A stretch of 64,000 bases of DNA from Candidatus Micrarchaeota archaeon (GCA_964647855.1 CAZYJW010000003.1:67431-131430); one strand, 5' to 3'; shown: positions 22,439-63,358, numbered from the stretch's first letter. The notes: generated by a model not told the origin, from the letters alone. A program made the numbers and translations.

Positions 22439-22488
22439 CGGATTGAGTTTGCAATCAGGATTTTTAATCATGAGCGAGAAGGCAGGCC

Positions 22489-26866: not shown

Positions 26867-27792
26867 AGCTTCGAAACCACTTCTTGGATATCTTCCCGGC
26901 CTATGCCAAACAGCGTAAGATACATGCGGGAGTATTCCGACTTTCCGCACGCCTTGAGTCTTTGCAGCAGTTCAAACTGGTATGGGCGTGATTCATCAGG
27001 AAACATCAGCGCGCCCATGGCCAGGTCGATGTCGGTTTTGGAAAATCCGTGGACCGCACGAAGCTGAAGTTCGAACAGCTTCGCCGCAAGCCCGTATGGG
27101 CGGGTGGTGCTTGTTTTTATCCTTTCCCGGAACATGATGCGCGATTCCCCGATCAGGCCGTGGCCGTCCGCCCCAATCATGGCTGCGAGCATCGCCAGGT
27201 ATTCTCTGATAAAGACAGGAAGAAGCCGATGATGCAGCCCCGCCATGCCCCATAGAGACATGTGAATCGCATGCTCCCGTTCGTGCGCCTTTGTTTCGGA
27301 AAGGTCGTTTCCTCTGGGGCTTATGAAAACCTGGAAGATATGGTCGTGATAGGAGGCGCCATTCATTATGCAGACTTTTGAGTCTTCATCCAGCACTGTA
27401 GAATATTTGAGGTCGCCTTCGAATTCCGTGGAACACCTCCTCTGCTCGAACCGAGCCAGTTCCCCTGCATATTTTCGGACTGGGACATATTGCAAGCCAT
27501 CATCGTAGGTGGTTTCATTGAGGCGTGCGACATGCGCCAGAGAGCTCCGTGGATCTATCAGGGGACCGATGCTGGTTTTGACAACGAAGGGCGGTTGGGG
27601 CGATGCGAACTGCCTTGCTGGGGGAGGAGGTGTGATCTCGATGCCGCAAAGCGCCTTCTTCAGAAAGGGTATCCGTGTCGGCACGCCTTCGGATGAGCGC
27701 CTTTCGGCCTGGCGCAGGGCGTTTTCCCGTAGTCTGCGCCTGCGCCCGCTGGCGCTGATGCCGAGGGCCGAGCAGATTAGCGGGTTGCGCAT
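26863..27792 (-). CDS. Orphan HExEH putative zinc metallopeptidase-like protein (paralog A)
   Basis: AHEREHAIH ... EYLAML; lower GC than flanks; paralog of 27838..28830. Confidence 0.55.
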   Translation of the reverse strand: MRNPLICSALGISASGRRRRLRENALRQAERRSSEGVPTRIPFLKKALCGIEITPPPPARQFASPQPPFVVKTSIGPLIDPRSSLAHVARLNETTYDDGLQYVPVRKYAGELARFEQRRCSTEFEGDLKYSTVLDEDSKVCIMNGASYHDHIFQVFISPRGNDLSETKAHEREHAIHMSLWGMAGLHHRLLPVFIREYLAMLAAMIGADGHGLIGESRIMFRERIKTSTTRPYGLAAKLFELQLRAVHGFSKTDIDLAMGALMFPDESRPYQFELLQRLKACGKSEYSRMYLTLFGIGREDIQEVVSKL

Positions 27793-27837
27793 TTGAATAA
27801 ATGTGGTTAGAAAAGGTTAAAAGTATTTCTTAAACGC

Positions 27838-28830
27838 TTAAAGGCTGAGCCTTGAAACGATATCGCGCAGATCGTCGAAGTGGACGCCGAACATGCGGTA
27901 GTAAGTGGCGTTGTATTCCGCAATCGCCGCATCGCGCATCCGGACGAACTGCTCCTGGAACGGGGAATCGAGCGCCTGGCCGTATTCCCGCCTCAGCTCC
28001 TCCCTGAACATCCAGGCGATGCCCATCGCGACGTCCTTCCTCTGCATGCCGTATCGTTCCGTGAGGCGCCCAATGAGCCCAAGCGCCGCCTTGTCGTGCG
28101 CGGGATGGCCGCCGCTTTCCGCGCCGGTCGGTTGCACATTGATGAATTCATTGCGCCAGGCAAGCAGCTGCGGCGCCTCTCCAAGGTCAATCAGCGTGCG
28201 GAGCATGGCGAGGTATTCCGTGGTTGCTGAGGGCAGGGCAAGGGACGGAAAGCCCGCCAGGTTCCAGAGCGAATGGTGCCGGGCGTGCTCAAGCTCATGC
28301 GTCATGACGTGCCGATGGGAATAGAAGTCCTGGTCCCTCCTGAGGAAGATGTTGTAGAGACATGTGAAGACCCCGCCTCCGCCAAGCAGAAGCCCGGCTT
28401 CATCACCCGTCACCCGGGCGACGCGGAGGTCGCCGATATAGGAAATGTCGCAGGGCGTGACGCGGTAGAGGATGCGGCCGTCCACGGGCTTCTCGACAGA
28501 TATCGCCTGCAGGCCCCTGCTGGAGTTGAATGAATTGAACCGGGCGATTTCGTCCCAGAAGGCCCTGAAGCGGAAATATGCCCGGAAATCCGCCCGCAGC
28601 CCGAAGACATGCCCTTCCCCGGCCGTCTTCTCAAGGGAGCGCGGCTCGGACCGGACCGACTCGCAGTTAGGGGTTGCCGCCCCGCAAAGCTCGCTCTTGA
28701 GGAATGGAATCCGCGTGCTGAGCCCCCCGAAGGCGTTTTTCGCGGCCCGCTCCTCCATTCTCGCATGGAGCCTCCTCTTCCTGGATGCTGCAGAGAGGCC
28801 GAGGGAAAGATAGAGCGGAGGCACTGCCAT
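27838..28830 (-). CDS. Orphan HExEH putative zinc metallopeptidase-like protein (paralog B)
   Basis: THELEHARH ... EYLAML; shares S(G/R)R(R/K)RRL, TRIPFLK..LCG and SLW..AG with paralog A. Confidence 0.55.
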   Translation of the reverse strand: MAVPPLYLSLGLSAASRKRRLHARMEERAAKNAFGGLSTRIPFLKSELCGAATPNCESVRSEPRSLEKTAGEGHVFGLRADFRAYFRFRAFWDEIARFNSFNSSRGLQAISVEKPVDGRILYRVTPCDISYIGDLRVARVTGDEAGLLLGGGGVFTCLYNIFLRRDQDFYSHRHVMTHELEHARHHSLWNLAGFPSLALPSATTEYLAMLRTLIDLGEAPQLLAWRNEFINVQPTGAESGGHPAHDKAALGLIGRLTERYGMQRKDVAMGIAWMFREELRREYGQALDSPFQEQFVRMRDAAIAEYNATYYRMFGVHFDDLRDIVSRLSL

Positions 28831-28836
28831 GGGAGA

Positions 28837-28864
28837 GATGTGTATGGAAAAGGTTAAAAGAGAT
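28837..28864 (-). promoter_or_regulatory. 28-bp promoter segment, copy 1 (ATCTCTTTTAACCTTTTCCATACACATC on minus strand)
   Basis: Exact duplicate at 29937-29964; both lie 6 bp upstream of an ATG; contains a TATA-like TTTTAA. Confidence 0.8.
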
Positions 28865-28898
28865 TATATGGCGGGAGTTCCAGTTCCAGATGAAAGGC

Positions 28899-29930
28899 TT
28901 ATTTTGTAGATTGGGATTGGATAGCAGAATGGAGCTCGGGGTTGATGGATGCAAGGGAGTCGAGAGCCCCGGCTTTGCCCCCCTGAGGCAGTTCCGCAAG
29001 GAACGAGAATGCCCTGAGGACGTCCTGGGGGCCGTATTCCATGTGCGAGACCTCCTCGCTATAGATTTCATAAATCTCCCCGCTGACATAGCACGGGTCG
29101 GCGCCCTTCGCGGCGACTTCCTGGGGAGTCTCCCGTTCCACACCGATAACCTCCGCGGGGCGGTCAACCACCTTGATGCTCCTTGGGGTCAAGGACGAGA
29201 TTGACCTCGCGAGGGCGGATGGAGGCGCGTCAGGATTCTTGAGGATTCGTTCCAGCACTGTCTGGTTCGCGCTCGTGGAGAGCGCTTCCAGTTCTTCCGC
29301 TGATAGCCCCCCACCAAGCTTCGAGCGATATGCCCCGCCTTTTGAAGTCGGGCGCTCAAGCGCATCGTAGGCTTCCATAGCTGGATTGGAGCCATCATAT
29401 GAAGCGGTGCCGCAAGCAAGGACCGCCCTAACCAAATGTTCCCGCGAGAGCTTTCCGCTAATTTCTTTGCGGAGGTCCGGGCCCGCGTTCACTGCCGAAT
29501 AAACGATTAGCAGGATTTCCGGAGAGCCGCTGCGGCCAATCCGCTCAAGTTGTTTAGGCGCGAGCGCACGTATGAAGTCCGACATCTCCTTCCCCGCGGA
29601 ACATCCGCCGGAGAGGGCCACGGCTTCGATGATGTCTTCGCTGCAAAAAAGCCGGAAAATGCCAGGATGCAGTCCGGGCGTGCTCAGCCTGATTGAGAGG
29701 GTGCGGACGGCTTGGCGCCGCACTGCCTCGCTGCCATTGCCAGAGAGCCTGGATAGCGTGCGCAGGTTTATATGGGGGTCCGCGGCTTTGCGGATGTCAT
29801 CGCCCAGGGGATTATGAATGCCAAAAAAGCGGCCGTGGCCGAAAAAGCGGCCCTTTTTTTCCCGGGGAGCGGATTCGCACGCTTCCGGAGATTTGATGCA
29901 TTGCCTTGGTGGAATGAATTCGCCGCTCAT
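28899..29930 (-). CDS. Orphan helical-repeat (HEAT/LRV-like) protein
   Basis: Repeating patterns such as VRRQAV..L and VLERILKNPDAP..AL; own duplicated promoter. Confidence 0.5.
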   Translation of the reverse strand: MSGEFIPPRQCIKSPEACESAPREKKGRFFGHGRFFGIHNPLGDDIRKAADPHINLRTLSRLSGNGSEAVRRQAVRTLSIRLSTPGLHPGIFRLFCSEDIIEAVALSGGCSAGKEMSDFIRALAPKQLERIGRSGSPEILLIVYSAVNAGPDLRKEISGKLSREHLVRAVLACGTASYDGSNPAMEAYDALERPTSKGGAYRSKLGGGLSAEELEALSTSANQTVLERILKNPDAPPSALARSISSLTPRSIKVVDRPAEVIGVERETPQEVAAKGADPCYVSGEIYEIYSEEVSHMEYGPQDVLRAFSFLAELPQGGKAGALDSLASINPELHSAIQSQSTK

Positions 29931-30563: not shown

Positions 30564-31754
30564 ATGGCTTCTTTTGACAAGATCCTTTCAGAGAAATCCA
30601 TCTTCCGGGACCTCTCGGTGCTCTCGCCGCATTACGTCCCCCGCGACCTGCCCTACAGGGAGGGCCAGATGCACGAGATAATGTCGGTGATTTCCCCGGC
30701 CCTGCGGGGGCAGAAGCCCAGGAACCTCATCATATACGGGACGACCGGCACCGGCAAGACATGCAGCACGAAGAGGGTGATGGAGGAGTTCGTGAAGGCC
30801 GCCGAAGCCGGCAGGGCGAGCATGCATTACGTCAACTGCAGGATATACAATTCCAGGTACAGGATACTCCAGAAGATTCTCAGGGGATACCTGCCCGAGC
30901 TCGAGAAGGCCGGATTCGGCCTGCCTTTCCTCTATGAGAAGCTCGTGGAGATTGCCACGCGGGGGGAGCAGATAGTCATCATACTCGATGAAATCGACAT
31001 GGTGAAGGACCTTGACGAGCTGGTATACACGCTCACGCGCTCGAACGACGAGATAACCAAGGGGGGCGTCAGCATCATCGGCATCTCCAACAAGCTCTCG
31101 TTCAAGGATTCCCTGGATCCCCGCAGCAAGAGCAGCCTGTATGAGACCGAGATGGTCTTCGAGCCCTACAGCGCCGAGCAGCTCAAGAGGATACTCGAGC
31201 AGAGGGCGGCCGAGGGCTTCAACGACGGCGTGGTGGAGCCCTCCGCGGTGAACCTCGCGGCCGCGATAACATCGCAGGAGAGCGGCGACGCGCGCTACGC
31301 TCTGAAGCTCCTGAACAAGGCCGGCGAGATGGCCCAGCAGGCCGGGAAGGCCAGGATAACGGATGAGGACGTCGAGGCCGCCTGCAGGAAGGTCGAGATA
31401 GACCTCGTCCTCGAGACGCTGAAAACCCTTCCCGAGATGCACCAGCTCGCCCTCTATGCGGTAGCAACGCTTACGTCGTCCGGAAGCAGGTACGCGCGCC
31501 TCGAGGGCGTGGACCCCGGCTTCCTTTTCTCCGGGGAGGTCTACGAGGAGTACGAGCGCGCCTGCAAAAGCGCGCGCAAGAGGCCGCGCAGCTCGCGATG
31601 GTTCAAGGAATACGTGAACGACCTCGAGACCCTCGGCCTCATCGTCACGACACCGAGCGGAAAGGGCGTGCGGGGGCAGACCACGCTGATAAAGCTCGGC
31701 CCGGGGCCGGAAAGCGTCCTTGGGATACTGAAGAAGAACCTTTTCGGGGCATAA
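30564..31754 (+). CDS. cdc6: Orc1/Cdc6 replication initiator
   Basis: LSPHYVP..LPYRE, GTTGTGKT, ILDEID, SGDARYAL.LL, C-terminal wHTH with G.RGQT. Confidence 0.96.
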   Translation: MASFDKILSEKSIFRDLSVLSPHYVPRDLPYREGQMHEIMSVISPALRGQKPRNLIIYGTTGTGKTCSTKRVMEEFVKAAEAGRASMHYVNCRIYNSRYRILQKILRGYLPELEKAGFGLPFLYEKLVEIATRGEQIVIILDEIDMVKDLDELVYTLTRSNDEITKGGVSIIGISNKLSFKDSLDPRSKSSLYETEMVFEPYSAEQLKRILEQRAAEGFNDGVVEPSAVNLAAAITSQESGDARYALKLLNKAGEMAQQAGKARITDEDVEAACRKVEIDLVLETLKTLPEMHQLALYAVATLTSSGSRYARLEGVDPGFLFSGEVYEEYERACKSARKRPRSSRWFKEYVNDLETLGLIVTTPSGKGVRGQTTLIKLGPGPESVLGILKKNLFGA

Positions 31755-38802: not shown

Positions 38803-40059
38803 ATGGAGTATCAGCACAAGCTATTGCTGGTGACCGCAATTCTGGTCGCCGCTGCCCTGTATATCGCTTTCACTGCGGCCCCTGGGCCGGCCCCGGGGGC
38901 GGAGCAGTCTGAAGCCGAAGAGCTTCTCGTCCGCTCCGCGGGCTTCGGAAGGGACCTTGCGGACTATGTGTATTCATACAGCGAGAACTCGGACGGCTTC
39001 CGGGTCTCCTACACGCTCACATCGTCAAAAGGCAGCATGCTGATGGCCGTCGAGAATCCGCTCTCGCTCAAGAGGGTCTACCTGCTCCCCAACGACACAG
39101 TTTTCTGCATCAGGTATCTTGGGAACGAGTCGTGCGCATCGGTGAAGGATGACGCGCAGATGTCGAATTATGTGGCATTCGCAGCCTCCAGGTTCTTCAA
39201 CGAGACCACAATCGTGCGCTCCAGGGAGACTATGGAGGCCCTGATAGGCAAGGGATACCTCAAGGCCGGCCCTGACATCGAAAATGCGACAGTCGGGTCC
39301 TTCGGATGCCGCAGGGTCAGGTATGTCATCGACTACTCGAACGCTACGGTGAACGACGCCGCGCTTTTCGGAATAGGCGCCCAGTCGCCCAAGATCTACA
39401 GCCTCACAAGATGCATCGACGCCGAATCATGGCTCGCATACGAGACAACGCTTTCCTATGAGGACGCAGGAATGAACCATTCGAAAACAACAAGGGTCCT
39501 GTCGTTCAGGGAGGGCGCGGAGGAGATAGAGCCGCCCGCACTTTCCGGAAGCCCGGTCGGCGAGTTCGCAAACGAGAGGGAGAAGCAGGTGAAGCTCGCC
39601 GGCTGCTTCACGGGGCTGCAGGGGAGCGAGCGCGAAGCGTGCATCGCGGAGGTCGCCCTGAGCATACGCAGGACAGACATCTGCCAGCTCGCCGGGAGCC
39701 GCAGGGACCGCTGCCTGGTCTCGATAGTCCCGCTGACCAGGGACACGTCAATATGCGGCATGATAACTGATCCCGGATTCAGGGAGGACTGCTATATCGA
39801 GCTCGCGGGGGCCTATAAGGACTCCTCGTACTGCGGCAGCGTCTCGGACGCCCAGAAGAACGCCTTCTGCCTGGAGGTCTCGAGGCCCAAGGAGGCCGGA
39901 GGCGGCGAAGCCGATGGGGCGGAAATCCCGGCCGAAGGCGGCGTTTCCCCCGATAACGAGACCGGCGGGATTGTCGACATCGGGGAGTTCATCGACTACG
40001 TGGACAAGGGGCCTTCCGGCGGCACCGTTCCGGACGCGAACGCCAGCGAGCCTTCATGA
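38803..40059 (+). CDS. Membrane-anchored secreted protein with C-terminal Cys-rich helical repeats
   Basis: N-terminal TM helix; repeated C...R..C...A...D..IC pattern typical of DPANN surface proteins. Confidence 0.7.
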   Translation: MEYQHKLLLVTAILVAAALYIAFTAAPGPAPGAEQSEAEELLVRSAGFGRDLADYVYSYSENSDGFRVSYTLTSSKGSMLMAVENPLSLKRVYLLPNDTVFCIRYLGNESCASVKDDAQMSNYVAFAASRFFNETTIVRSRETMEALIGKGYLKAGPDIENATVGSFGCRRVRYVIDYSNATVNDAALFGIGAQSPKIYSLTRCIDAESWLAYETTLSYEDAGMNHSKTTRVLSFREGAEEIEPPALSGSPVGEFANEREKQVKLAGCFTGLQGSEREACIAEVALSIRRTDICQLAGSRRDRCLVSIVPLTRDTSICGMITDPGFREDCYIELAGAYKDSSYCGSVSDAQKNAFCLEVSRPKEAGGGEADGAEIPAEGGVSPDNETGGIVDIGEFIDYVDKGPSGGTVPDANASEPS

Positions 40060-40098: not shown

Positions 40099-41277
40099 AT
40101 GAGGATTGCCTGGTTCACGGACACGTACCTGCCCCAGACGAACGGCGTCGCCATCTACATTGCCGACGCCCTGAGGCTGCTTTCGAAAACCCACGAGGTC
40201 GTGCTGTTCGCCCCCGGCGAGGGCGGCTTCCGGACCGAGGAGGAGGGGCCGAATTTCCGGATAATCCGGATACCGTCATCGCCGTTCCCGTTCTACGAGG
40301 GCTATCGCGTGGCATCGGCGGACTACCGCCGGATTAGCGCCCTCCTGAGGAAGGAGAGGCCCGATATCGTCCACGCGCATGCGCCCATCAACCTCGGGAT
40401 ACAGGGAATAATCGCGGCAAAGAGGGCGAAAATCCCCTGCGCCGCCACGTACCACACGCATTTTCCGGACTACGTGCCGCACCTTCTCAACGGCAGGCTG
40501 CCGAAATTCCTCCATCCCGTCGGCGACGCGACCGCGAAGGAGTTCGTGAAGCGGTTCTATGGAATGGCTGATTTGGTCGCAGCACCCACTGAGGAGCTGG
40601 CGGCGGAGCTGCGCTCCTACGGGCTCGGGGGGGCAATCTGCCTCCACAACGGCATAGACTTCTCCAAGCTCGAGTGCACGGACCGGGATGCGGCGGCTTT
40701 CCGCAAGGCGCATGGCATAGGCGCCGGCAGGAGGGCGGTCCTCTACCTGGGCAGGCTCAGCTTCGAGAAGAGGGTTGACCGCCTCATGGAGGCGTTCGCG
40801 ATGGTGGATGATCCCGAGGCGGTCCTCGTTCTGGCCGGGGGCGGCCCCCGCCTGGACGAATTCAAGAGGCACGCGGGAAGCATGGGCCTGAAGAACGTCG
40901 TTTTCACCGGCTTCATCCGCGAGACCGGGCCCGCCTACCGCGCCTGCGACATCTTCGCCTCGGCTTCGGACAGCGAGACTTTCGGCCTGACTTTCGTGGA
41001 GGCGATGCATGCCGGCCTTCCGGTTGTGGGGGTGAGGCGGCTGGGCACGAAGGAGGTCGTGAGTGACGGCAAAAGCGGAATCCTGGTCGACCCGGGGGAT
41101 GCGAAGGCTCTTTCCGCGGCCCTGGGGCGCCTGCTTGGCGACCCGGCCCTGCGCGAGCGGATGGGCGCCGAGGGCAGGAAGGAGTCCGAGAGGTATTCCA
41201 TCGAGCGGAACATCGAGGCCACGCTTGCCCTATACGGACGCCTTCGGGGCGGGGGGGGCAGGGCATGTTCGTCATAG
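40099..41277 (+). CDS. GT4 family glycosyltransferase
   Basis: TDTYLPQTNGV, YLGRLSFEKRVD, ETFGLTFVEAM..GLPVV. Confidence 0.94.
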   Translation: MRIAWFTDTYLPQTNGVAIYIADALRLLSKTHEVVLFAPGEGGFRTEEEGPNFRIIRIPSSPFPFYEGYRVASADYRRISALLRKERPDIVHAHAPINLGIQGIIAAKRAKIPCAATYHTHFPDYVPHLLNGRLPKFLHPVGDATAKEFVKRFYGMADLVAAPTEELAAELRSYGLGGAICLHNGIDFSKLECTDRDAAAFRKAHGIGAGRRAVLYLGRLSFEKRVDRLMEAFAMVDDPEAVLVLAGGGPRLDEFKRHAGSMGLKNVVFTGFIRETGPAYRACDIFASASDSETFGLTFVEAMHAGLPVVGVRRLGTKEVVSDGKSGILVDPGDAKALSAALGRLLGDPALRERMGAEGRKESERYSIERNIEATLALYGRLRGGGGRACSS

Positions 41278-41714
41278 CCGGCATCGACCCGGGGATAAAG
41301 ACGGGCTACGCCGTATTGGACCTCGACGGCAGGCTTGTATCCTGCGGCTGCGTCAAGGAGGCGAGCGACGAGGCCCTCGTCCGCATAATCTCCGCCGCGG
41401 GCATACCGGTCCTCATAGCGTCCGACACCAGCCCACCGTCCCATTTCGTGCAGAAAATCGCCTCGCGCCTCAATGTCAGGGTGTGTTCGCCCAGGGAAAG
41501 CATGAGCCGGCTGGAAAAAAGGCGGATAGGAGCCGAAATCGGGGACCCGCACGTCCGGGACGCTTATGCGGCGGCGGTGAAGGCCTACCGGCGCTTCCAG
41601 AACCGCCTGAGGCAGATTGACGCGGACGGAATCGGCGGCAAGGAGGAGAGGAAGCGCATGGCCCTCACGGGCAGGAGGGTGTCCGACTGGAAGGACCGGA
41701 ACATTTATATATGA
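41265..41714 (+). CDS. DUF460-like RNase H-fold protein
   Basis: IAGIDPG..TG.AVLDL.G, IASD..P, H.RDA.AAA..AY. Confidence 0.8.
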   Translation: MFVIAGIDPGIKTGYAVLDLDGRLVSCGCVKEASDEALVRIISAAGIPVLIASDTSPPSHFVQKIASRLNVRVCSPRESMSRLEKRRIGAEIGDPHVRDAYAAAVKAYRRFQNRLRQIDADGIGGKEERKRMALTGRRVSDWKDRNIYI

Positions 41715-42426: not shown

Positions 42427-44994
42427 TCACATGCTCTTGAATTCGACAAGCATCCTCTCGAGCTCATCCGTGGTGTGGAGCAGGAGGGAAGAGCTGTCGG
42501 CCTCCATCTTGACTATTATCGGGCCGACCGTGGGCGAAGAGTTCATGAGGCGCTGGAACTGGTCCTTGTCGGCGGCGTTCCTGAATATTATTATCGCTAT
42601 CCCGCGGCCAACGGTCGGAATGACCCGGCTCAGGAAGGCGGCGGGGTCCGCCCCCCGCTCGTAGAAGTGCAGCGACATCTGCTGGCCGACCACGGTGATT
42701 TCGCTGTCGGCATCCTTTGACTCGCCGAGGCCCGTGAACGGTATGGCGTTGTTGACGCATATGTCGCGCAGGCGGCGCATGATTGAGAGGTATTCTATGG
42801 AATGCCCCGAGCGCTCCTGCCAGGATGCAAGGCCGTAGTAGCCCAGGGACTCCCGGACCAGGCCCTTCTTTTCGAGCTCGTCGAGGAGGAATTCCACGTT
42901 GTAGTCCGTGATATAGATGGGCTTGCCCTGGTAGAAGATGTCCTTGAAGCCGTTCTTCACCTCGGACGAGGTGAGCGGCGTGCTGGACCAGCGGTAGTTC
43001 TCGTTGACCTTCTCGAACACCCCCAGGATGGTGTCGGAGTTAAGCGGAATTTTCGTGCGCGAGACGGGCGGGAAGTCGGGCACGTCCAGCGAGAAGAAGA
43101 CCTCCTCCTGGCGCGCGAAGATGACGCCCACGCCCACTATGCCGCCGGTGAGTATGATGGTTATCCAGAACATCGGCTCGTCGAAGAGCGTCTTGGCCCT
43201 CGTATGGACCACCGGCACGGTGACCTTGAGGCCGCCGGCGGTGAAGTCGAAGGAATGGTTGCCGTAGGGGAGCGGCTCGCCTCCGGTGTACTGGCTGAGG
43301 TCCACCCGCACCCTGTCGACGTTGTTGTACGTGTAGGAGCCGTACTGCCCCTTGTTTATCGTGAGGCGCAGCTCGCTCAGGATGCGCGGGGAGCCGTCCA
43401 TCGTTATGTCGAAGCGGTATATCGATTTCTTCTGCGGGTCGTAGCCCTGGTAGCCGATGTCGATTGAGACCACCTTCATGTATGTCTGGGCATAGACCCT
43501 GCTCTCGTCGTCCATCAGGCGCACCGTGTATTCGCCCTTGTCCAGGTAAAGGAGCAGGTCGAACGACGCGTCCGCCTGTACGTTGATGTTCCCCTGCGGG
43601 AAGGACTGCACCTCTTCGCCCTCCTTGTCCACGACAACGAGGTACATGTTGGGCTGGGCGGCAACGGGCTCGCGGAGCTGCGCGTTCATGCGCACGGGCA
43701 GGTTGGTGATGTTTGCGGAGACGACCCTCCCCCCCTCCTCAATCACGAGGGTGTTCCTCAGGGCCTTCTCGGTCCGGATGAAGAGCGTCTCGCGTATTGG
43801 GTTGTTTGATGTCGCAGAGTGGCCGGTGAACTCGACCTTGACGGTCGCGTTGGCGGACTCGAAGGGCTCGGAGAAGAAATATGAGGTGCCGCCGTATTCC
43901 GTCTGGTTGGCCAGCACATAGACCTTGCTCGGCGCATTGGGCTCGACCCACGGGGTCTCGAAGACGATGCGCGCGACGTCCTCGGCGGCTGCGCTGAAAT
44001 TGCCCCTCCAGCCGCCGTCGAGGGTCTGGGGCAGGAACAGGAACGCCCCGTCCCCGCGCTTCGCGATGCTCACGGAGCCGTAGGCCAGCCCGCTTCCCCA
44101 GCCGCCCCCGCTCGGCACGGCGCGGTAAAGCGGCTGGAACAGCTTGAAGCCGTCCGAGCTCGAAAGGACGGACGTCTCGTCGAATTTGAGGGGTATTCCG
44201 CCCAGCGCCTCCTTGGGGGTCGACGAGACCAGGGTGCCGTTGAGCATCCTCGTGAAGGGCTGCCCTATATAGACGACGACCACGCCCCGGTCCGCGAGCT
44301 TGTTCATGCTGAGGGTGCTGTCGACCCCGAGTATCTCCTTGGGTACCGCGCCCGAGGGTATTATCACGAGGGCCCCCTCCGGGACCGTCTCAAGCTGCTT
44401 GATGGTTATCTCGTTGAGCATGATTTTCCTTTTAGCGAGGTTGGAGCGCAGGCTGGCGATGAAATCCGCGTATGTCGTTGCCTCGAGCCTCTCGCTGTTG
44501 AGGATGAAAACCTCCGAGGGCACCTTGTTGTCGTAGGTCGTGAGGTTTATCGTATAGTTCACTAGGTTGGCTGTCCGGTAGTCGATCATGACCGCCGACA
44601 GGTGCGTTTCGGCCCCCCTTGTCCCCGTGTCCAGGATTTCCCCGCGGACAAGCGTGTTGCCTATCTCGGCCTTCTCCGTCTGGGGCTGGAAAACCCCCGG
44701 CGGGGGCTGGAGCAGGGCGGTCAGGTAGAGCCATGAGAGCCCCACGATTATGAGGGCGATGAAGATGAATGCGCCGAAGACCATGAAGTTGAAGCCGCCC
44801 GGAGGGGGGCGGGACGCGGACTCGGCCTTCTTTTCGGGCTTCTTGGGGGCGAGAAAGGCGCGGACCGTGTCCTTGAAGCGCTCTATGGGCGGCCTTTCCT
44901 TGACCTTGAAATGGCCGACGTACTGGTACTTGCGCTTCAGCTCGAAGCTGTACGTCTTTCTTTTCACCTTGCTGCTCAGATCGGCCATGGGCAA
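42427..44994 (-). CDS. Large two-TM membrane protein (about 520-aa extracellular region, about 230-aa cytoplasmic tail), operon gene 5
   Basis: TM at about aa 70-93 and about aa 610-627; NxT/S sequons between them; wHTH-like segment after the second TM. Confidence 0.75.
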   Translation of the reverse strand: MPMADLSSKVKRKTYSFELKRKYQYVGHFKVKERPPIERFKDTVRAFLAPKKPEKKAESASRPPPGGFNFMVFGAFIFIALIIVGLSWLYLTALLQPPPGVFQPQTEKAEIGNTLVRGEILDTGTRGAETHLSAVMIDYRTANLVNYTINLTTYDNKVPSEVFILNSERLEATTYADFIASLRSNLAKRKIMLNEITIKQLETVPEGALVIIPSGAVPKEILGVDSTLSMNKLADRGVVVVYIGQPFTRMLNGTLVSSTPKEALGGIPLKFDETSVLSSSDGFKLFQPLYRAVPSGGGWGSGLAYGSVSIAKRGDGAFLFLPQTLDGGWRGNFSAAAEDVARIVFETPWVEPNAPSKVYVLANQTEYGGTSYFFSEPFESANATVKVEFTGHSATSNNPIRETLFIRTEKALRNTLVIEEGGRVVSANITNLPVRMNAQLREPVAAQPNMYLVVVDKEGEEVQSFPQGNINVQADASFDLLLYLDKGEYTVRLMDDESRVYAQTYMKVVSIDIGYQGYDPQKKSIYRFDITMDGSPRILSELRLTINKGQYGSYTYNNVDRVRVDLSQYTGGEPLPYGNHSFDFTAGGLKVTVPVVHTRAKTLFDEPMFWITIILTGGIVGVGVIFARQEEVFFSLDVPDFPPVSRTKIPLNSDTILGVFEKVNENYRWSSTPLTSSEVKNGFKDIFYQGKPIYITDYNVEFLLDELEKKGLVRESLGYYGLASWQERSGHSIEYLSIMRRLRDICVNNAIPFTGLGESKDADSEITVVGQQMSLHFYERGADPAAFLSRVIPTVGRGIAIIIFRNAADKDQFQRLMNSSPTVGPIIVKMEADSSSLLLHTTDELERMLVEFKSM

Positions 44995-44997
44995 AAC

Positions 44998-45786
44998 CTA
45001 CTGCACCACTTCCAGATAGCCTTCGTTCACGAGCTTGTTCAGCATCTCCTCGACGCGGGCTTCGGACATCCTGTGCAGCTTGCTGAACTCGGTGACGTTA
45101 ATCGTCCCGCTGTGCTCGGCGACCCACTCCTGGAGCTTTGCCTTGAGCGCGTCGTCCGAGAGCCCCTCGAGCTGCGAGAGGCGGAGCTTGATGTCGTCGT
45201 TCTGGGTCTTGAGCTCGTAGTTCTGCGATGTGAGCGCCTGGTTCTGCTCGGTCAGCCGCTCGACCTTCTTGCGAAGGTCGTCGACGTCCTTCTTCATGGA
45301 GTCGTATGACGTGTAGAGCTTGTTGTAGTCCATCGTCACCGAGCCGGCGAGCTCCTTTATGGCGTTTTCGATGAGCTGGTAAAGGGCCTTGTTGTCCACC
45401 TCGTAGGACGACTCCACCAGCGACAGGATGTTGAGAAGGTAGCGGATGACGTCCACCCTGCGCTTCTTCGGGCCTATTTCGGAAGGAATGGTGTAGAGCA
45501 CCTCCACCTCGTCCTCCTTTATCTTGACTATCGAGAACAGGTAGGGGTTCTTGTCGATGTCCCGGCTCTCAACGTAGATGACGTTGAGGAGGTCTTTTTC
45601 CGGCGCCAGCTCGAGGAACGATATGGAGCGTAGCGTGTTCGCGAGGTCCTTGAGCTTGCCCTTGGCGAGCTTCCCCTTGATCTTGAATCCGTCGACCTGC
45701 GGGGGGTGGACCTCCTCCTTCTGCGCGGCGCCCCCGCCGGATGGCTGGGGGGCGCCGGCTTTCTGTTGTGCATTCGGAAGCGCCAT
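44998..45786 (-). CDS. Soluble coiled-coil protein with a C-terminal winged-helix-like domain, operon gene 4
   Basis: Heptads VDDLRKKVERLTEQNQAL...; terminal GTINVTEFSKLHRMSEARVEEMLNKLVNEGYL. Confidence 0.7.
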   Translation of the reverse strand: MALPNAQQKAGAPQPSGGGAAQKEEVHPPQVDGFKIKGKLAKGKLKDLANTLRSISFLELAPEKDLLNVIYVESRDIDKNPYLFSIVKIKEDEVEVLYTIPSEIGPKKRRVDVIRYLLNILSLVESSYEVDNKALYQLIENAIKELAGSVTMDYNKLYTSYDSMKKDVDDLRKKVERLTEQNQALTSQNYELKTQNDDIKLRLSQLEGLSDDALKAKLQEWVAEHSGTINVTEFSKLHRMSEARVEEMLNKLVNEGYLEVVQ

Positions 45787-45797
45787 TGTTCAACACC

Positions 45798-46319
45798 TCA
45801 TTTTTTCTCGCGTTTTCTCTTCCTTCTCGGGACCGGCTTCGGCTTGCCGGCTGCCTCAGGCGCGCCCTCCGCCTTTCCGGCGGGCACGGCCGCCGGCGGG
45901 GGCTGCCGGGGCGGCGTCTGCGGCGCAGCCGCCGGCGCCCTCGCTGAGGCGCTGACGCCCTCGACCGCCGGGACATACTTGAACAGGACGGGCATCGCGA
46001 CTATCAGGCATGCGACGACGATGCCCGAAAAGATTGCCGCGGCCTCGAACCGCCCGTAGAGGAGCGGCGATATGACTATTACGAGGAGCATGATGCCGGC
46101 GAGGACGGCGGCGAAAAGCAGGGTCTTCTCGAAAGAGCGGCGGCGCTCCATGTGCTTCGGCAGGCAGGCCTCGCAGACGAAGAGCTGGTTGTTCTGGGCA
46201 ACCCCGAGGGCGCGCTTGGCTGCGCGAATAGCCCCGATGACGCGGTCCTCGCGTACGGGGAAGGCGCGCTTGCCCCCGACATCCGCCTGGCACGTGACGC
46301 AAACCTTCATCAGGCTCAT
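45798..46319 (-). CDS. Zinc-finger two-TM protein with Pro/Ala/basic tail, operon gene 3
   Basis: CVTC...CEAC, two hydrophobic helices; ATGA overlap with the ATPase stop. Confidence 0.7.
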   Translation of the reverse strand: MSLMKVCVTCQADVGGKRAFPVREDRVIGAIRAAKRALGVAQNNQLFVCEACLPKHMERRRSFEKTLLFAAVLAGIMLLVIVISPLLYGRFEAAAIFSGIVVACLIVAMPVLFKYVPAVEGVSASARAPAAAPQTPPRQPPPAAVPAGKAEGAPEAAGKPKPVPRRKRKREKK

Positions 46320-47899
46320 TCCTCCAAGACGACCTGGCTGATGTCCCGGCCCACTCCGCCGCTCTTTTTGAGGTCGACCTTGCCGAAGATGTTGATGATG
46401 GTTATGTCGTCAATGCCCGCATCCTTGAGGAAGTCGCCGATGTTGCGCCGGGCGATGCCGTCGCGCTCGAGCTGGATGACGAAGCCGACCACATCCATGC
46501 GCCGGTTCGACTTCTCGAACGTCTTCGTAAGCTCCTCGATCTTGTCGTCGGTCATGCCGAACTGCCTGAGTTTCCTCCTGAAGTCCTCCTTCAGGAACGA
46601 TACGCTTCTTGACACCGCAACATCCCTCCGCTGTTTGTCCGTGAGCACGCCTGTGAGGTCGAGGAAATATTCCTTGCTCGGCTCCTCGCCCTCTATCTTC
46701 GAAATGAGGAAGGTGGACGGGTAGGGGGTCGGCAGGGTGAGCGCCATGTTCACGGCGCACTGCCCGACGCCAAGGCGGCTTATCTCCTCCCGCATGTAAT
46801 TGCTGAAATTGAGCGAGCCCTGGAGGTAGTCGAGGAACTTCTCGAACTTGACCTTGAGCATGAAGGTGGTGCCGACGTTCGAGAATATCGCCTCGCTGAT
46901 GTCGGTCGGGTTCTGGGAGGCGATTATCATCGCGAAGTTGTACTTGCGCCCCTCGCGGACGATCATGACCGCGTCCGAGTTCTCCTCCTTGCCTATCTTC
47001 CACGCCTCGTCGAGGACTATGAGGAGGCGCAGCCCCTTCACGTTCGACCAGCCTTCGAGGCGCATCTTCTCCTTGATGAACTGCAGTATCGTGAGTGCGG
47101 CCAGGGCGCGCGAGGTCTCGTCGGGCAGGCCCGCGAGGTCCAGGTCGACTAGGCCCGACGTGATCAGGTCGTCGAGGCTCACCGTGCTCTGCTGGGCGAA
47201 GAAGTCCTCGCCCGGCTTGGTGAACTGCTTGAGCCGGTAGATGGCGTTCTCGAGCTCGGCCGGGAACTCGTATGTCCCGACCTGCGACTGCTCGCTGAGG
47301 ATGCGCACGACGTCCTTGAGCGTCGGGGGGATGATGGGCTTGCCCAGCTCGTCCTTCTGCTCGCGGGCGTCCATCCTGAACTTGCTCTCCATGTACACCT
47401 TCTCAATCGCCTGCTCGGTGAGCCGCCTCTGCTCGGGGTAGTTGGCTATGTCGGTGAGGAGCTCCAGCGTCCTCATGACCTGCTTGATGCGGTCGTAGGG
47501 CTTCATGCCGCCCAGGTCGAGGAGGTTCAGGTAGGAGCCCTTTCCGAGCGAGACTATCTTCCCGCCCGTCTGCTTGACCCAGTCCTTGTATTCCCCGGCC
47601 CAGTCGATTATGAGCGCGTTGCTGTTCCAGACGAACGCCGAACGCAGCAGGAAAGTCTTGATGAAGTAGGATTTGCCCGAACCCGATATTCCTACGACCG
47701 CGATGTGCGGGTTCGCCACGTTCTGGAAGCTCCAGTAGAACGGCATGTTGAATATCTTCGTCCTGCCGATGTAAATCGCGTTCGTGGGGTCGTCGAAGAG
47801 GACCTCCATCGGGGGCTCGGGCGGGTGCACCAGGAGGTTGCGCCTGGATATCGCCGAGTTGGAGAGCTTGACGAGCCGGAGCTTTCCGCCGATGGCCAT
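46316..47899 (-). CDS. VirB4/HerA-like P-loop ATPase, operon gene 2
   Basis: NPHIAVVGISGSGKS, IIDWAGEY, LNLLD, LIVLDEAW, REGRKY...IIASQ; start trimmed to MAIGGK (TGATG overlap). Confidence 0.88.
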   Translation of the reverse strand: MAIGGKLRLVKLSNSAISRRNLLVHPPEPPMEVLFDDPTNAIYIGRTKIFNMPFYWSFQNVANPHIAVVGISGSGKSYFIKTFLLRSAFVWNSNALIIDWAGEYKDWVKQTGGKIVSLGKGSYLNLLDLGGMKPYDRIKQVMRTLELLTDIANYPEQRRLTEQAIEKVYMESKFRMDAREQKDELGKPIIPPTLKDVVRILSEQSQVGTYEFPAELENAIYRLKQFTKPGEDFFAQQSTVSLDDLITSGLVDLDLAGLPDETSRALAALTILQFIKEKMRLEGWSNVKGLRLLIVLDEAWKIGKEENSDAVMIVREGRKYNFAMIIASQNPTDISEAIFSNVGTTFMLKVKFEKFLDYLQGSLNFSNYMREEISRLGVGQCAVNMALTLPTPYPSTFLISKIEGEEPSKEYFLDLTGVLTDKQRRDVAVSRSVSFLKEDFRRKLRQFGMTDDKIEELTKTFEKSNRRMDVVGFVIQLERDGIARRNIGDFLKDAGIDDITIINIFGKVDLKKSGGVGRDISQVVLEE

Positions 47900-48708
47900 C
47901 AGACCACGCTCTCCTCGAGCTCCTGCGGGCTCGTCGGGAAGAACCTCTCCCACTCGAAGCACTTCATCATCTCGTCCCCGGTCAGGACGACCACCTCGAC
48001 GTTGAGGGCGTTCGCGAGCACGGTCTTGAGCTCGTTGGCCTGCGAGCGGACCTGCGCCGTCGCGGCGTCCTTGCTCAGGCCGGTTGCCGTCGTCTGGGCG
48101 TAGGCAATAACCCCCATGGGCTTGACGCCCTTGATCAGCTTGGTGAGCTGGGCGTCCCAGATTGCGACCTCGCGCTCGAATTTGTCTATCTTGAGGACGT
48201 CGGGCTGGGACTTGTCCCTCTCGCGGGCGAGCCGCAGCTGGGCCTCCGCGCGCTTGGTCTCGATTTCCTTGCGCTTCTCCCCCAGGTCCTCGACGTAAAG
48301 CATGTATGCGATTTTCGTGACGTACTTGATGTTAGATATGGCCCTCTCGAAGAACTGGTTGTAGGACATCGTCTCCTCGGATGTCTTTTCCGTGGCCGAC
48401 TCGAAAATCTTGAGCCCCATGAAGGCGGTGGCATAGTAGACGCCGTTCGCGCTCTTCACGATGCAGTCCTGGCTGGGCGGCACCTCGTAGCCGAGGTCGG
48501 ACAGCATTACGATTTTCGCCCTCTCGGTGATAAGGGGTATCATGATGTAGCCGTACCTCCAGAAAAGGACGCCCAGGACCGAGCCCATGAACGCAAGCAG
48601 GCCGCCCAGGAGCGAGAAGATGCCCCCGCCCCCTATAAGGGCGAATAGGGCGCCGATGAAACCGACCGCGATAGCGGCATAAGTGTAGGTCTTTGCGGAT
48701 GAAACCAT
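47899..48708 (-). CDS. Two-TM protein with a cytoplasmic alpha/beta domain and coiled coil (VirB3 plus VirB4-N-like), operon gene 1
   Basis: N-terminal hydrophobic hairpin; GAGGT RBS; TTTTATATAC promoter at 48751-48760. Confidence 0.7.
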   Translation of the reverse strand: MVSSAKTYTYAAIAVGFIGALFALIGGGGIFSLLGGLLAFMGSVLGVLFWRYGYIMIPLITERAKIVMLSDLGYEVPPSQDCIVKSANGVYYATAFMGLKIFESATEKTSEETMSYNQFFERAISNIKYVTKIAYMLYVEDLGEKRKEIETKRAEAQLRLARERDKSQPDVLKIDKFEREVAIWDAQLTKLIKGVKPMGVIAYAQTTATGLSKDAATAQVRSQANELKTVLANALNVEVVVLTGDEMMKCFEWERFFPTSPQELEESVV

Positions 48709-48793
48709 ATGCCATACCTCTGCTGGGACTGATATGATAATCAGGAAAGGGTATATAAAACCGCACGATTGGATTTCCGACGATGGGAAGCGG

Positions 48794-61235: not shown

Positions 61236-63341
61236 CTATGTGTACTCCCAGCACTCCGGCTCGAGGACAAAGACGTCCTTCCAGCAGACGTGCGTCGGGT
61301 CCCCGTCGACGATGGCGGTTATCCTGACCGTGTTGTGCGGGTCGGCCGTCACGGTGTAGTAAGTGCCGTCGCTGTCCGAGTCCGAGAGGGTTATCCCGCT
61401 CTCGGCGCTCCAGGAAACGCTGGTGCAGCTCTCGTTGGCATGCGGCCCGCACATGATGCCCACCCAGCCGTAATAGCCGGGGAAGGCGTTCTCGGGCCCG
61501 CTGCCAATGGTGCACCACTGCGTCGAGCCCGGGTCGTCCGGGTCGGTGTCGTTGGTGTCGTTGCCGCCGGAGGTGTCGTTCACTACGGTAATCGGCGCGA
61601 AAACAACAACGCCCACCATCGGATCGGGCATGCCTGACCAGGACGCGAAGCCGCGCAGGTCGCCGGAATCGGGGGATGCCGGGGAGTTGTATGTCGTGCC
61701 GTCGGTGCTCGAGTCGCTCGTGCTGCCGCCAAGGCCGTTCACCGGGTCGTATTCCGCGTCGTCCGGGTCGTCCTGCACGGTGTCCACGAAGCAGTTGAGG
61801 TCGAACCATCTCGACGAGCTGATGTTCATCGTCGCGCTGGGCGGGATGAACTCGCACTCGTACTCGTTCCCAAGGCCGTCGTCAGTCACATCCACGTCGG
61901 AAAGGCAGTGGGCGATGCCGGAGCGGTAGTTGAGCGTTCCGCTCGAGCCCTGGGGCGAAATGGAATACGCCCATGCGTACGAGCTCGTCTTCTCGATAAA
62001 GCCCCCGTCAAGGCCGAGCCAGTACCAGTTGCTGCCCGAACACGGAATCGTGTCGCCAGCCAGGTTCTCGCAGGTGACGAGGTATTCCGCCACAATCATG
62101 GGCGCGACCTCGAGCTCGGGTGGCTCTATCTCGCATGTTATCGCGCCGGAGAGGTCTATCGTGTCCGTGCATGTCGCCGCAGAGCCGCACGTCGCCGAGA
62201 CGGTCTGGCCGGTGAAGGTCAGGACCGTTCCGCCGGATGCGCCGGCTCCGCGCTGGATGAGGACGTAGACGTCCTTGTTGGCGCCGGAATTTATCTGCTC
62301 GTTGAAGCCGTTCGAGGCCGGGCAGAGCGATGGCGGGAAGCCCAGCACGTCGCATGTCGCGACCGGGAATGCCATCACCGAATAGTCCGGATTCGAGCTG
62401 GAAACGGACGTCACCCTTATCGGGTCCCCGCTGTTGTGCATCGTCGCCTCGAGCATTATCAGGTCCTCGTCGAGGAGCGAGCCGCTCGCGGAGACGCTGT
62501 TTAGGACCTCGTTGAAGCTGCATGTCCCGCCCGAGTTCACGACCTGAACCGTGACCGTGTCGGTGGCGGAGGTCGATGGTATCGAGGGCGCGTTGTGCGT
62601 GAAGTAGTCGAGCCAGAACCATGACGGGTTGTCGGGGATGTCGAGCGGGTGCTTCACCACCGCGGCGAAGCAGCTCACCCCGGAGAGGCTGGTGGTGATT
62701 GCGTGGGCCCCTGAGCCGGTCACGGCGAAATCCACATTGCTCACTGAAGGCATGTCGGAGCTTCCCTTCACGGTGGCTCCGTCTTTCACCTGCAGCGTTC
62801 CCTTGCAGAAGACGGCGGCGCCGCCCTCCTTGCCGCTGATGAACACGCCGGATGCGTTGTTGTACGTTATCGGCTGGTTGTAGAAGTTCGATTCGCCAAG
62901 GGCGCTGTATTTGGACGGGTCCTGGGAGAAGTCGTTGGAGTCGCCGAACGATTTCTGGGTGTTCCATGCGGACGAGGCCAGCCATGCGATGTTGCGGTTC
63001 GAGCTTACGCCGCCCGCGTTAATCATGGCGGGGCAGTAGCCGCCGCCGCAGGTCGGGTATATCGCGGTCGCTGCGAAATCGGGCGTCGCCCACTTGGCAT
63101 TGACCGAAGGGATGACCCGAAGCGTGGCCCCCGAGCAAACCTCGTCCCCGTTCTGCAGGTTGTTCGGGTCGCCGCTTGCGACGTCCCCCGATACCACCCT
63201 GAGCGTGAAATCGCTCGTGAACTGCATGTCCGTGTCGAAGTGCCATGTCGAGTCCGAGCCGCGGAAGTTGGCGTTGTTGACGTCGGTCGCGAACGCCCCC
63301 GCAGCAAGCAGGGCCAGCAGGGCAATTATTCCCATCCTCAT
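61236..63341 (-). CDS. Large secreted, Cys- and Ser/Thr/Asp-rich multi-domain surface protein (about 700 aa)
   Basis: Signal peptide MRMGIIALLALLAAGAFA; repeated Ig-like beta patterns; no C-terminal TM. Confidence 0.75.
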   Translation of the reverse strand: MRMGIIALLALLAAGAFATDVNNANFRGSDSTWHFDTDMQFTSDFTLRVVSGDVASGDPNNLQNGDEVCSGATLRVIPSVNAKWATPDFAATAIYPTCGGGYCPAMINAGGVSSNRNIAWLASSAWNTQKSFGDSNDFSQDPSKYSALGESNFYNQPITYNNASGVFISGKEGGAAVFCKGTLQVKDGATVKGSSDMPSVSNVDFAVTGSGAHAITTSLSGVSCFAAVVKHPLDIPDNPSWFWLDYFTHNAPSIPSTSATDTVTVQVVNSGGTCSFNEVLNSVSASGSLLDEDLIMLEATMHNSGDPIRVTSVSSSNPDYSVMAFPVATCDVLGFPPSLCPASNGFNEQINSGANKDVYVLIQRGAGASGGTVLTFTGQTVSATCGSAATCTDTIDLSGAITCEIEPPELEVAPMIVAEYLVTCENLAGDTIPCSGSNWYWLGLDGGFIEKTSSYAWAYSISPQGSSGTLNYRSGIAHCLSDVDVTDDGLGNEYECEFIPPSATMNISSSRWFDLNCFVDTVQDDPDDAEYDPVNGLGGSTSDSSTDGTTYNSPASPDSGDLRGFASWSGMPDPMVGVVVFAPITVVNDTSGGNDTNDTDPDDPGSTQWCTIGSGPENAFPGYYGWVGIMCGPHANESCTSVSWSAESGITLSDSDSDGTYYTVTADPHNTVRITAIVDGDPTHVCWKDVFVLEPECWEYT

Positions 63342-63358
63342 GTCTTCCCACCCGTTTT

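Follow-up and report, generated by a model that had tools for sequence, protein, structure and literature searches.

We propose that five adjoining genes on the minus strand of a 64,000-nt stretch of Candidatus Micrarchaeota DNA (GCA_964647855.1 CAZYJW010000003.1:67431-131430; this whole stretch is "the window", and all window coordinates refer to it) specify a domesticated, chromosomally fixed membrane translocation machine of type IV secretion system (T4SS) or Ced-like descent, with DNA as its most likely substrate. The odds on this reading are, in our estimate, about even (a probability of roughly 0.5). A first-pass annotation, made from the sequence alone, had already picked out this operon (42427-48708) as a candidate translocation or DNA-uptake machine. 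Its first two genes read as a split CedB/VirB4-type ATPase, with g2 as the motor and g1 as the detached membrane-anchor/N-terminal domain. The operon is a core, vertically inherited possession of the Micrarchaeota, held under strong purifying selection, and is not a mobile element. The triad of g1, ATPase and g4, to judge from sequence comparison, recurs elsewhere in clusters with minimal T4SS or Ced hallmarks. The elements of the operon are:

48760-48751, minus strand: TATA box TTTTATATAC, the operon promoter, 43-52 nt upstream of the g1 ATG
about 48715-48719, minus strand: GAGGT ribosome-binding site, about 7 nt before the g1 ATG
47899-48708, minus strand: g1, 269 amino acids (aa) from its ATG, as in its homologues
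46316-47899, minus strand: g2, 527 aa, as in its homologues
45798-46319, minus strand: g3, 173 aa
44998-45786, minus strand: g4, 262 aa
42427-44988, minus strand: g5, 853 aa from its ATG (855 aa from a TTG at 44994)

(A technical note: start codons were chosen to match the lengths of database homologues. The GTG at 47962 that an open reading frame (ORF) list offers as the start of g2 is probably not used; an 853-aa protein identical to g5 is in the database and homologues back the ATG start, so that the 855 aa of the first-pass annotation gives way to 853.)

The ATPase and its putative membrane anchor

The Walker A (GISGSGKS) and Walker B (VLDEAWK) motifs of g2, together with REGRKY and ASQNPTD, are invariant across its family, and the Pfam families DUF87, AAA_10 and P-loop_TraG match it above cutoff, up to about residue 405. 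Among NCBIfam models the highest score is that of CedB (74 bits, residues 60-370), followed by VirB4_plasma (70 bits, 70-356), the CD1110 VirB4-like model (69 bits, 61-397) and CedD (65 bits); these CedB and VirB4 models cover the whole ATPase domain, whereas the HerA models match only its C-terminal half (residues ~300-410, 35-45 bits against cutoffs of 800-970). All of the NCBIfam scores lie far below the equivalog cutoffs, and the 700 bits that define CedB proper (NF041017) are not reached: by its sequence g2 is a distant relative of CedB, not an orthologue, and a VirB4/CedB-type P-loop ATPase motor rather than a HerA. The first pass had called g2 a VirB4/HerA-type ATPase. Walker A begins at residue 63 of 527, and the 62 residues that precede it therefore leave no room for the HAS-barrel of HerA or for the N-terminal domain of VirB4. 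At the other end, the extra tail that the first-pass annotation had put at about 100 aa and called helical stands as a tail: about 115 aa, following residue ~405 and conserved within the family.

Other profiles touch g2 over shorter or more generic segments. The FtsK_SpoIIIE family (PF01580) matches residues 71-107, that is, the P-loop only, at E = 4e-4 and 20 bits (cutoff 24), and no T2SSE-type profile (PilB/FlaI; type IV pilus or archaellum) appears in the Pfam and NCBIfam lists for g2; grouping of g2 with archaellum or pilus ATPases, or with HerA beyond a partial match, is accordingly not seen. The best match among PDB sequences is the DUF87 domain of DptH (E = 3.5e-10), followed by HerA chains and including a VirB4 C-terminal domain, and PADLOC returns its DndH and HerA models at 45-67 bits. 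The DptH, HerA, DndH and VirB4 C-terminal matches are best taken to reflect the common DUF87 core and nothing more. For the operon as a whole, PHROGs and PADLOC offered only this DUF87-core likeness (DndH, HerA, terminase-like) and coiled-coil noise, and defence and viral readings on that basis were rejected. A rough neighbor-joining tree, rooted on a single outgroup (the window's own HerA_C-type ATPase), lacking support values and so no more than indicative, places g2 among short, split ATPases next to CedB-like clades, with the CedA1-associated fused CedB-like clade in the same large group, and far from its outgroup.

That outgroup is an observation in its own right: at 20783-22471 (minus strand) the window encodes a second ATPase of the FtsK-HerA superfamily, 562 aa long, unrelated to g2 and matching Pfam HerA_C (PF05872) with 277 bits, so that the genome has a separate HerA-like protein.

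Where, then, is the N-terminal domain of the motor? It is, we suggest, present in trans, as g1. The g1 protein consists of a two-helix membrane hairpin (residues ~13-48) and, C-terminal to it, a cytoplasmic domain (about 200 aa) that includes a helical hairpin. Neither as a single sequence nor as an alignment profile run against PDB sequences does it find a match in Pfam, NCBIfam or PDB, and its AlphaFold2 (AF2) model is poor (pLDDT 53, from an alignment containing 37 orthologues). A "SPFH/Band 7" label that UniRef attaches to the Bilamarchaeum orthologue is unsupported: no such Pfam or NCBIfam match exists for g1. When 1.8 billion cluster representatives were searched exhaustively with phmmer, the matches extended beyond the ~500-aa ATPases to fused CedB-like relatives of about 810-910 aa, in which the ATPase starts near residue 285. 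These match the CedB model nearly end to end (residues 42-643 of P0275 align with model positions 13-587/590, at 141 bits); two genes that match Pfam CedA1 immediately precede one of them, P0279, and another, at locus L087, adjoins an integrase. Their first ~280 residues have the layout of g1, a two-helix membrane hairpin followed by a soluble domain.

Alignment of the two profiles with hhalign (75 g1 orthologues against residues 1-256 of seven fused proteins) gives, over 230 collinear columns, a probability of 90.8% and P = 1.2e-6. When the fused proteins are taken at full length, g1 falls on residues 1-256 and g2 on residues 286-653, and the probability for g1 stays at 89-91% across comparisons. 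The soluble part of g1 alone still scores 36.8 (P = 8e-5), and reversed and column-shuffled controls (20 shufflings) score 10-24 as against 37-55 for the real comparisons. It is because g1 is homologous to the N-terminal region of the fused CedB-like proteins that g1 and g2 together are read as one split ATPase. Two items of background bear on this: the N-terminal domain of CedB has been reported as a structural homologue of part of the N-terminal domain of VirB4 (PMC11868833), and in bacteria VirB4 is anchored to the membrane by VirB3 (PMC12102498).

The fused proteins have a further feature at their other end. In P0263, P0275, P0279, P0283, P0306 and P0503 a C-terminal extension of about 200 aa has the appearance, by eye, of a winged helix that leads into a restriction-endonuclease-like core (IDLVxD…xVExE(T/K)); Pfam finds no domain in it. 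A correspondence between this extension and the cytoplasmic C-terminus of g5 was considered and dropped (hhalign P = 0.074, not significant), and the g3 and g4 profiles do not match the fused proteins at all.

A fixed locus, its remote relatives and its partner proteins

The close homologues of the operon all come from the Micrarchaeota, including Ca. Bilamarchaeum and metagenome-assembled genomes of Anstonellales type, which bears out the DPANN origin suggested in the first pass. A scan for the ATPase in one genome per GTDB species found a relative in at least 584 genomes; the best 80 of these, which were taken for a comparison of loci, are all Micrarchaeota (a few are labelled "ainarchaeum sp." by NCBI). 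In all 80 of these best loci the order and orientation g1-g2-g3-g4-g5 are kept wherever the contig does not end (tblastn), and synteny is thus conserved across the phylum. Every locus seen holds the system in a single copy and in a housekeeping neighbourhood: of the 86 loci searched, 52 have purB on the upstream side and 39 have tfe on the downstream side.

The ATPase is the best conserved member. Measured against the window proteins over 46 complete loci that also carry purB, median identities are 73% for g1, 80% for g2, 46% for g3, 67% for g4 and 48% for g5, with 69% for purB; in every one of the 46 loci g2 surpasses purB in conservation, and its identity ranges from 65 to 94% across the 80 species. 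IMG/VR contains no relatives of the operon. Housekeeping flanks, the empty IMG/VR search and a GC content at third codon positions (GC3) like that of the rest of the genome are the reasons for regarding the operon as not mobile.

(Two homologues of g2 of Micrarchaeota type, P0233 with 1026 aa and P0234 with 1196 aa, are enlarged by intein-like insertions with LAGLIDADG/Hint-like features, the one insertion site lying in Walker B, LFC|…|VVDEAWK, and the other in the P-loop, GSGKS|…HNS|YLIKT.)

Outside the Micrarchaeota, loci of uncultured organisms were searched with hidden Markov models built from the Micrarchaeota families. The relatives found there are:

L004 and L090: ATPase ~38% identical; gene order g1-ATPase-g4, then pheT
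L089: ATPase 37% identical (blastp); gene order ATPase-g4
L091: ATPase of 433 aa, with an 845-aa g5-like gene directly upstream (E = 1.4e-14)
L005 (3858-11452) and L092 (5672-13507): ATPases of 365-465 aa in a compact conserved cluster common to both

The cluster common to L005 and L092 runs in the order pilin-like protein, polytopic protein, g1-like protein, ATPase, g4-like protein, second ATPase. The pilin-like protein (123 aa, with a signal sequence and a hydrophobic hairpin) scores 25.6 bits with Pfam T4SS_pilin, just under the gathering threshold of 26.6; the polytopic membrane protein has 342-352 aa; the g1-like gene is matched at E = 3.6e-9 in L005 and 9e-21 in L092; the g4-like match is weak; and the second ATPase, of 755 aa, is DUF87/Zot-like. 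To all appearance the cluster is a minimal T4SS/Ced-like system that has not been described before. (The L092 copy lies near ftsZ and a gene for an SMC/Rad50-like protein.) In L091 the g5-like match covers the α/β ectodomain and the TM2/winged-helix region of g5 (described below), a 1243-aa UvrD/AAA_30 superfamily 1 (SF1) helicase is encoded directly downstream of the ATPase, and a g1-like gene lies 5 kb away. The recurrence of g1, ATPase and g4 in these remote relatives marks the triad as an old module. The ATPases of L005, L091 and L092 differ from g2 in being shorter and in lacking its C-terminal tail, and the Micrarchaeota operon differs from the clusters at L005 and L092 in lacking their second ATPase and their pilin and polytopic protein; in place of the latter two it has g3 and g5.

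What are the partners? None of g1, g3, g4 and g5 matches a Pfam, NCBIfam, PHROG, PADLOC or PDB family above cutoff, and their orthologues at L001-L003 are without a precomputed Pfam hit in a set that includes CedA1 (PF27251); the first pass had remarked that the partners are unlike CedA and TedA, and that description fits. Two hydrophobic helices are found in each of g1, g3 and g5, in line with the two-transmembrane (two-TM) proteins predicted in the first pass.

At its N-terminus the g3 protein has a partly degenerate Zn-ribbon, after which come two TM helices (~66-113). Its Pro/Ala-rich tail is basic at the very end, with a median net charge of +5.5 over the final 20 residues. The two helices and the Cys motif of the window copy agree with the "zinc-finger two-TM protein" of the first-pass annotation; the full CxxC...CxxC/H pattern is present in only 34 of 76 orthologues, however, and zinc binding is consequently not a conserved feature of g3. 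Conservation resides in the two TM helices, in an FE(K/R) motif next to the membrane and in the motif Y-x-P-A-x-E. The gene stands between g2 and g4 in 74 of 80 Micrarchaeota loci.

The g4 protein is soluble, with a conserved N-terminal domain (~55-140), a coiled coil (~145-210) and a C-terminal winged-helix-like domain (~215-262). Pfam coiled-coil families match residues 140-210, and the winged-helix families RQC, IclR, FeoC, Fe_dep_repress and EAP30 match residues 214-261 below threshold, much as the first-pass label of a coiled-coil/winged helix-turn-helix protein would have it.

The AF2 model of g5 is good (pLDDT 82). It predicts a cytoplasmic N-terminus, TM1 (~66-92), an ectodomain (105-597), TM2 (~603-626) and a conserved cytoplasmic domain (645-853) of winged-helix-like and α/β topology. 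The modelled ectodomain comprises six domains: a β-sandwich, a flavodoxin/GATase-like α/β domain with an invariant PQTxDGGW motif, and four immunoglobulin (Ig)-like domains. It carries eight N-x-S/T sequons, so that, apart from its length, g5 is the two-TM protein with a glycosylatable ectodomain that was first described. Median conservation is highest in the cytoplasmic winged-helix part (57%) and the α/β part of the ectodomain (47%) and falls to 33% in the Ig-like domains. Foldseek searches of PDB and BFVD with the whole-chain model return only generic macroglobulin, complement, RbmA, Ig, FN3 and tail-protein folds and GH42, and the alignment profile of g5 has no match among PDB sequences. 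A role for g5 as the S-layer protein was rejected: the Micrarchaeum S-layer protein is a different one, with PF05123, a family that g5 does not match.

Operon layout and neighbouring genes

The five ORFs are co-directional, predicted to be co-transcribed and closely coupled: g1 and g2 overlap by 1 nt (TGATG), g2 and g3 by 4 nt (ATGA), g3 and g4 are separated by 11 bp, and g4 and g5 by 9 bp with the ATG start of g5 or 3 bp with the TTG. In orthologous loci the median intergenic gaps are 2, 4, 4 and 12 bp, and a TATA-like motif 31-56 nt upstream of g1 along with a GAGG is present in 68 of 70. GC3 is 0.84-0.89 in the five genes, as compared with ~0.78-0.90 in the other real genes of the window. 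Upstream lies purB, encoding adenylosuccinate lyase (Pfam Lyase_1 and ADSL_C), and downstream, convergent and only 3 bp away, lies tfe, encoding TFE-α (Pfam TFIIE_alpha). The coordinates, the coupled junctions, the TATA box, the place between purB and tfe and the host-like codon usage thus all stand as first described.

The remaining genes of the window are of the housekeeping sort, among them those for eIF2-γ, Orc1/Cdc6, the primase small subunit, FttA/aCPSF1, deoxyhypusine synthase, tRNA-splicing endonuclease and P-type ATPases. A Pfam scan of 30 of the larger flanking ORFs, which was not exhaustive, found no integrase, transposase or relaxase, and this, together with the fixed position of the locus across species and the IMG/VR result, agrees with the lack of a mobile-element context noted in the first pass.

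Some of these neighbours deserve a word of their own:

41265-41714, plus strand: DUF460 protein (108 bits), overlapping the end of a GT4 glycosyltransferase gene by 13 nt, just before tfe and co-conserved with tfe in 12 related loci
38803-40059, plus strand: 418-aa ORF, with a TM or signal sequence at its N-terminus, numerous sequons and a C-terminus rich in Cys; no Pfam match
61236-63431, minus strand: 731-aa ORF; no Pfam match
30564-31754, plus strand: Orc1/Cdc6 gene (Cdc6_lid, Cdc6_C), ~11 kb from the operon
26863-29930, minus strand: three consecutive, paralogous-looking ORFs (309, 330 and 343 aa) with similar N-termini, e.g. LSLGLSAASRKRRL, between the genes for the primase small subunit and Orc1/Cdc6; none has a Pfam match

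The 418-aa and 731-aa ORFs may encode envelope proteins, and a replication origin may lie near the Orc1/Cdc6 gene.

A proposed translocation machine and its alternatives

How might such a machine work? The g1 hairpin and cytoplasmic domain would keep the g2 ATPase ring at the membrane's inner face, as VirB3 and the N-terminal domain of VirB4/CedB do in other systems, and the remaining membrane helices would be contributed by g3 and g5. The six-domain glycosylated ectodomain of g5 would span the pseudoperiplasm, which has been measured at 20-25 nm in Ca. Micrarchaeum harzensis, toward the S-layer or a neighbouring cell; six domains of ~4 nm each, as modelled, could bridge that distance. On the cytoplasmic side the winged-helix/α/β domain of g5, the basic tail of g3 and g4 would form a platform for docking and substrate binding, and ATP hydrolysis by g2 would drive a polymer through the complex, most likely DNA, as in Ced, in import or exchange. 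Formation of a complex, the stoichiometry of the ring, the DNA substrate, the direction of transport and a role in host contact are all features that we infer. Three things favour DNA as the substrate: import of DNA is what the only characterised archaeal relatives do; the partners on the cytoplasmic side have the look of proteins that bind nucleic acid (the winged helices of g4 and g5, the basic tail of g3); and the related cluster at L091 has an SF1 helicase.

The likeness to known systems goes some way and then stops. Ced (of Sulfolobales and Desulfurococcales: CedA, CedA1, CedA2, CedB, CedD/CedE) and Ted (of Thermoproteales) are domesticated T4SS (PMC9905601). Like the operon they are chromosomal, derived from T4SS and devoid of a relaxase, their motor is an ATPase of the VirB4/HerA superfamily (with CedB as the top NCBIfam model for g2 and the 2-TM and N-terminal region of CedB-like proteins homologous to g1), and they have small partner proteins with two TM helices. 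Unlike the Ced motor, that of the operon is split between two genes and scores 74 bits with the CedB model, far under its cutoff of 700; CedA1/TedC-type pilins and polytopic CedA/TedA are missing from the operon, as g3, g4 and g5 are from Ced and Ted; and the operon belongs to a mesophilic DPANN phylum, whereas Ced and Ted belong to hyperthermophilic Thermoproteota. The inner-membrane core of bacterial monoderm T4SS (VirB3 and VirB4, e.g. PrgI/PrgJ) shares the placing of a small 2-TM anchor gene directly upstream of a VirB4-type ATPase; g1, at 269 aa, is much longer than VirB3 and bears the N-terminal domain that normally resides within VirB4, there are no homologues of VirB6, VirB8, VirB1, VirD4 or VirB2, and the setting is an archaeal envelope with an S-layer. 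The clusters at L005 and L092 keep the g1-like gene, the ATPase and the g4-like gene in the same order (L091 keeps instead the g5-like gene directly upstream of the ATPase), and differ in adding a VirB2-like pilin, a polytopic protein of ~350 aa and the 755-aa second ATPase and in lacking g3 and g5; L091 adds the helicase.

Several considerations weigh against a translocation machine. The operon proteins include no VirB2/CedA1-like pilin, VirB6/CedA-like channel, coupling ATPase, helicase, nuclease or relaxase. Pfam CedA1, T4SS_pilin and TrbC match none of the five; a polytopic VirB6-like channel (CedA/TedA, 6-7 TM) is likewise not among them, polytopic partners being found only in L005 and L092; and with neither a pilin nor a polytopic channel gene in the operon, the channel-forming part is left unexplained. 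The homology of g1 hangs on one profile-profile comparison at ~90% probability, and the g1 structural model (pLDDT 53) is unusable. The winged-helix calls are below threshold for g4 and rest on topology alone for g5. Conservation above that of purB, and inteins in some lineages, fit a housekeeping task (for example chromosome handling) at least equally well. Nor is it proven that VirB4 proteins pump DNA in their own right.

Because conservation is so high and no channel protein is evident, two other accounts stay in play, both improbable but each to be taken seriously. One, the chief rival, is a housekeeping DNA translocase of FtsK/SpoIIIE type, the role in segregation or division that the first-pass annotation had named as its main alternative (its own translocation proposal being likewise still inferential as to substrate, direction and host contact). 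In this account g1 and g2 form a ring that clears or segregates the chromosome at the division site, g4 serves as an analogue of FtsK-γ, and g3 and g5 tether the assembly to the envelope or divisome. It is suited by the single copy and constant housekeeping neighbourhood, by an ATPase that outdoes purB in all 46 loci and by inteins in the P-loop and Walker B of homologues, which are typical of essential ATPases; FtsK belongs to the same ATPase superfamily, and its combination of membrane anchor, pump and winged-helix DNA reader has its parallel here. Most archaea are not known to have FtsK proper (Iyer et al. 2004, as cited in PMC4158269). Yet the FtsK_SpoIIIE likeness stops at the P-loop while CedB and VirB4 models cover the whole domain, the anchor is a different one, homologous to the CedB-type N-terminal domain, relatives adjoin pilin and polytopic T4SS-like genes, and a glycosylated, Ig-rich ectodomain of 500 aa that evolves faster than the cytoplasmic parts is hard to explain as the partner of an intracellular motor.

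The other account, which we hold to be about as unlikely, retains the T4SS ancestry and changes the substrate: export of proteins or effectors, or assembly of a surface filament or adhesin for attachment to a host. Pilus assembly and protein secretion in bacteria draw their energy from VirB4 ATPases (PMC12857230), g5 has an Ig-rich, adhesin-like ectodomain, contacts between Micrarchaeum and its host involve filaments and surface remodelling (PMC8975820), and roles of this kind have been proposed for the Patescibacterial T4SS and for nanohaloarchaeal SPEARE/VirB4 proteins, giant polypeptides in which Ig-like repeats, TM segments, a VirB4/TraG ATPase and a coiled coil are combined (PMC10266531). 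Compared by architecture, the SPEARE-type proteins, also of DPANN archaea and proposed as a secretion device for host interaction (PMC10266531), have the same ingredients as the operon, an Ig-like ectodomain, TM, VirB4-type ATPase and coiled coil, but in one giant chain with ~75 Ig repeats followed by a full-length VirB4 instead of five small genes. Against a non-DNA substrate stand the lack of a pilin or effector candidate in the operon, the resemblance of the cytoplasmic partners to nucleic-acid binders, the fact that Ced, the closest characterised relative, moves DNA, and the SF1 helicase of a related cluster.

Readings as a HerA-type repair helicase, as a defence module or as a mobile element are contradicted by the data. 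That g2 is a soluble HerA-type repair helicase, or part of a DndH/DptH or HerA-associated anti-phage module that lies beside membrane genes by chance, is very improbable: the DptH, HerA and DndH matches already cited, and the Joint Genome Institute (JGI) name "DNA helicase HerA-like ATPase" given to some homologues, speak for it, but the matches are to the DUF87 core and fall well short of the family cutoffs, a HAS-barrel region is lacking, as is any partner of NurA, Dnd, Sir2 or nuclease type, the genes around g2 encode membrane proteins, the invariant gene order with three of these across a phylum is unlike the patchiness of defence islands, and a separate HerA_C-type ATPase already exists in the window. 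Least credible of all is the idea that the operon is left over from an integrated conjugative element or a plasmid transfer module. HerA-like ATPases (arCOG) are common in archaeal "dark matter" islands (PMC4158269), and the fused CedB-like gene at L087 does sit beside an integrase; the operon itself occupies the same purB ... tfe chromosomal slot in dozens of species, with GC3 typical of the genome, strong purifying selection, no integrase, transposase or relaxase in the 30 flanking ORFs scanned and no relatives in IMG/VR.

A translocation machine of T4SS descent has a close biological precedent. In the Patescibacteria, likewise an ultra-small, host-dependent lineage, a chromosomal T4SS without relaxase is near-universal (PMC12102498) and is essential for epibiotic growth (PMC12102498, PMC12857230). 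It is conceivable, if rather less probable than the general proposal, that the operon is the DPANN counterpart of that system: an independently domesticated motor that has lost the pilin and VirB6 channel, has gained g5 and the adaptors g3 and g4, and serves as an indispensable conduit for host DNA, nucleotides or other macromolecules.

A search of the literature, confined to open-access papers, turned up no account of the cluster for Micrarchaeota or other DPANN archaea, so that it matches no system characterised there. A 2025 review of T4SS lists only Ced-type and plasmid systems for the archaea and does not mention DPANN, and Beltran et al. 2023 state that no other case of domesticated conjugation machinery is known. 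The novelty lies in a CedB/VirB4 motor divided between two genes, accompanied by three proteins without a known family and fixed throughout a DPANN phylum. The operon would extend domesticated conjugation machinery beyond the hyperthermophilic Thermoproteota and would give the essential T4SS of the ultra-small Patescibacteria a parallel among the archaea, and the division between an anchor/N-terminal domain gene and a motor gene helps to show how VirB4/CedB ATPases are built. It is not yet settled by what physical route DPANN archaea draw material from their hosts, and no transport apparatus has been assigned to the Micrarchaeota; the operon, present throughout the phylum and related to Ced and Ted, which are the only DNA-import machines known from archaea, is a concrete candidate, and the cultivated co-cultures of Micrarchaeum with Thermoplasmatales make the hypothesis testable.

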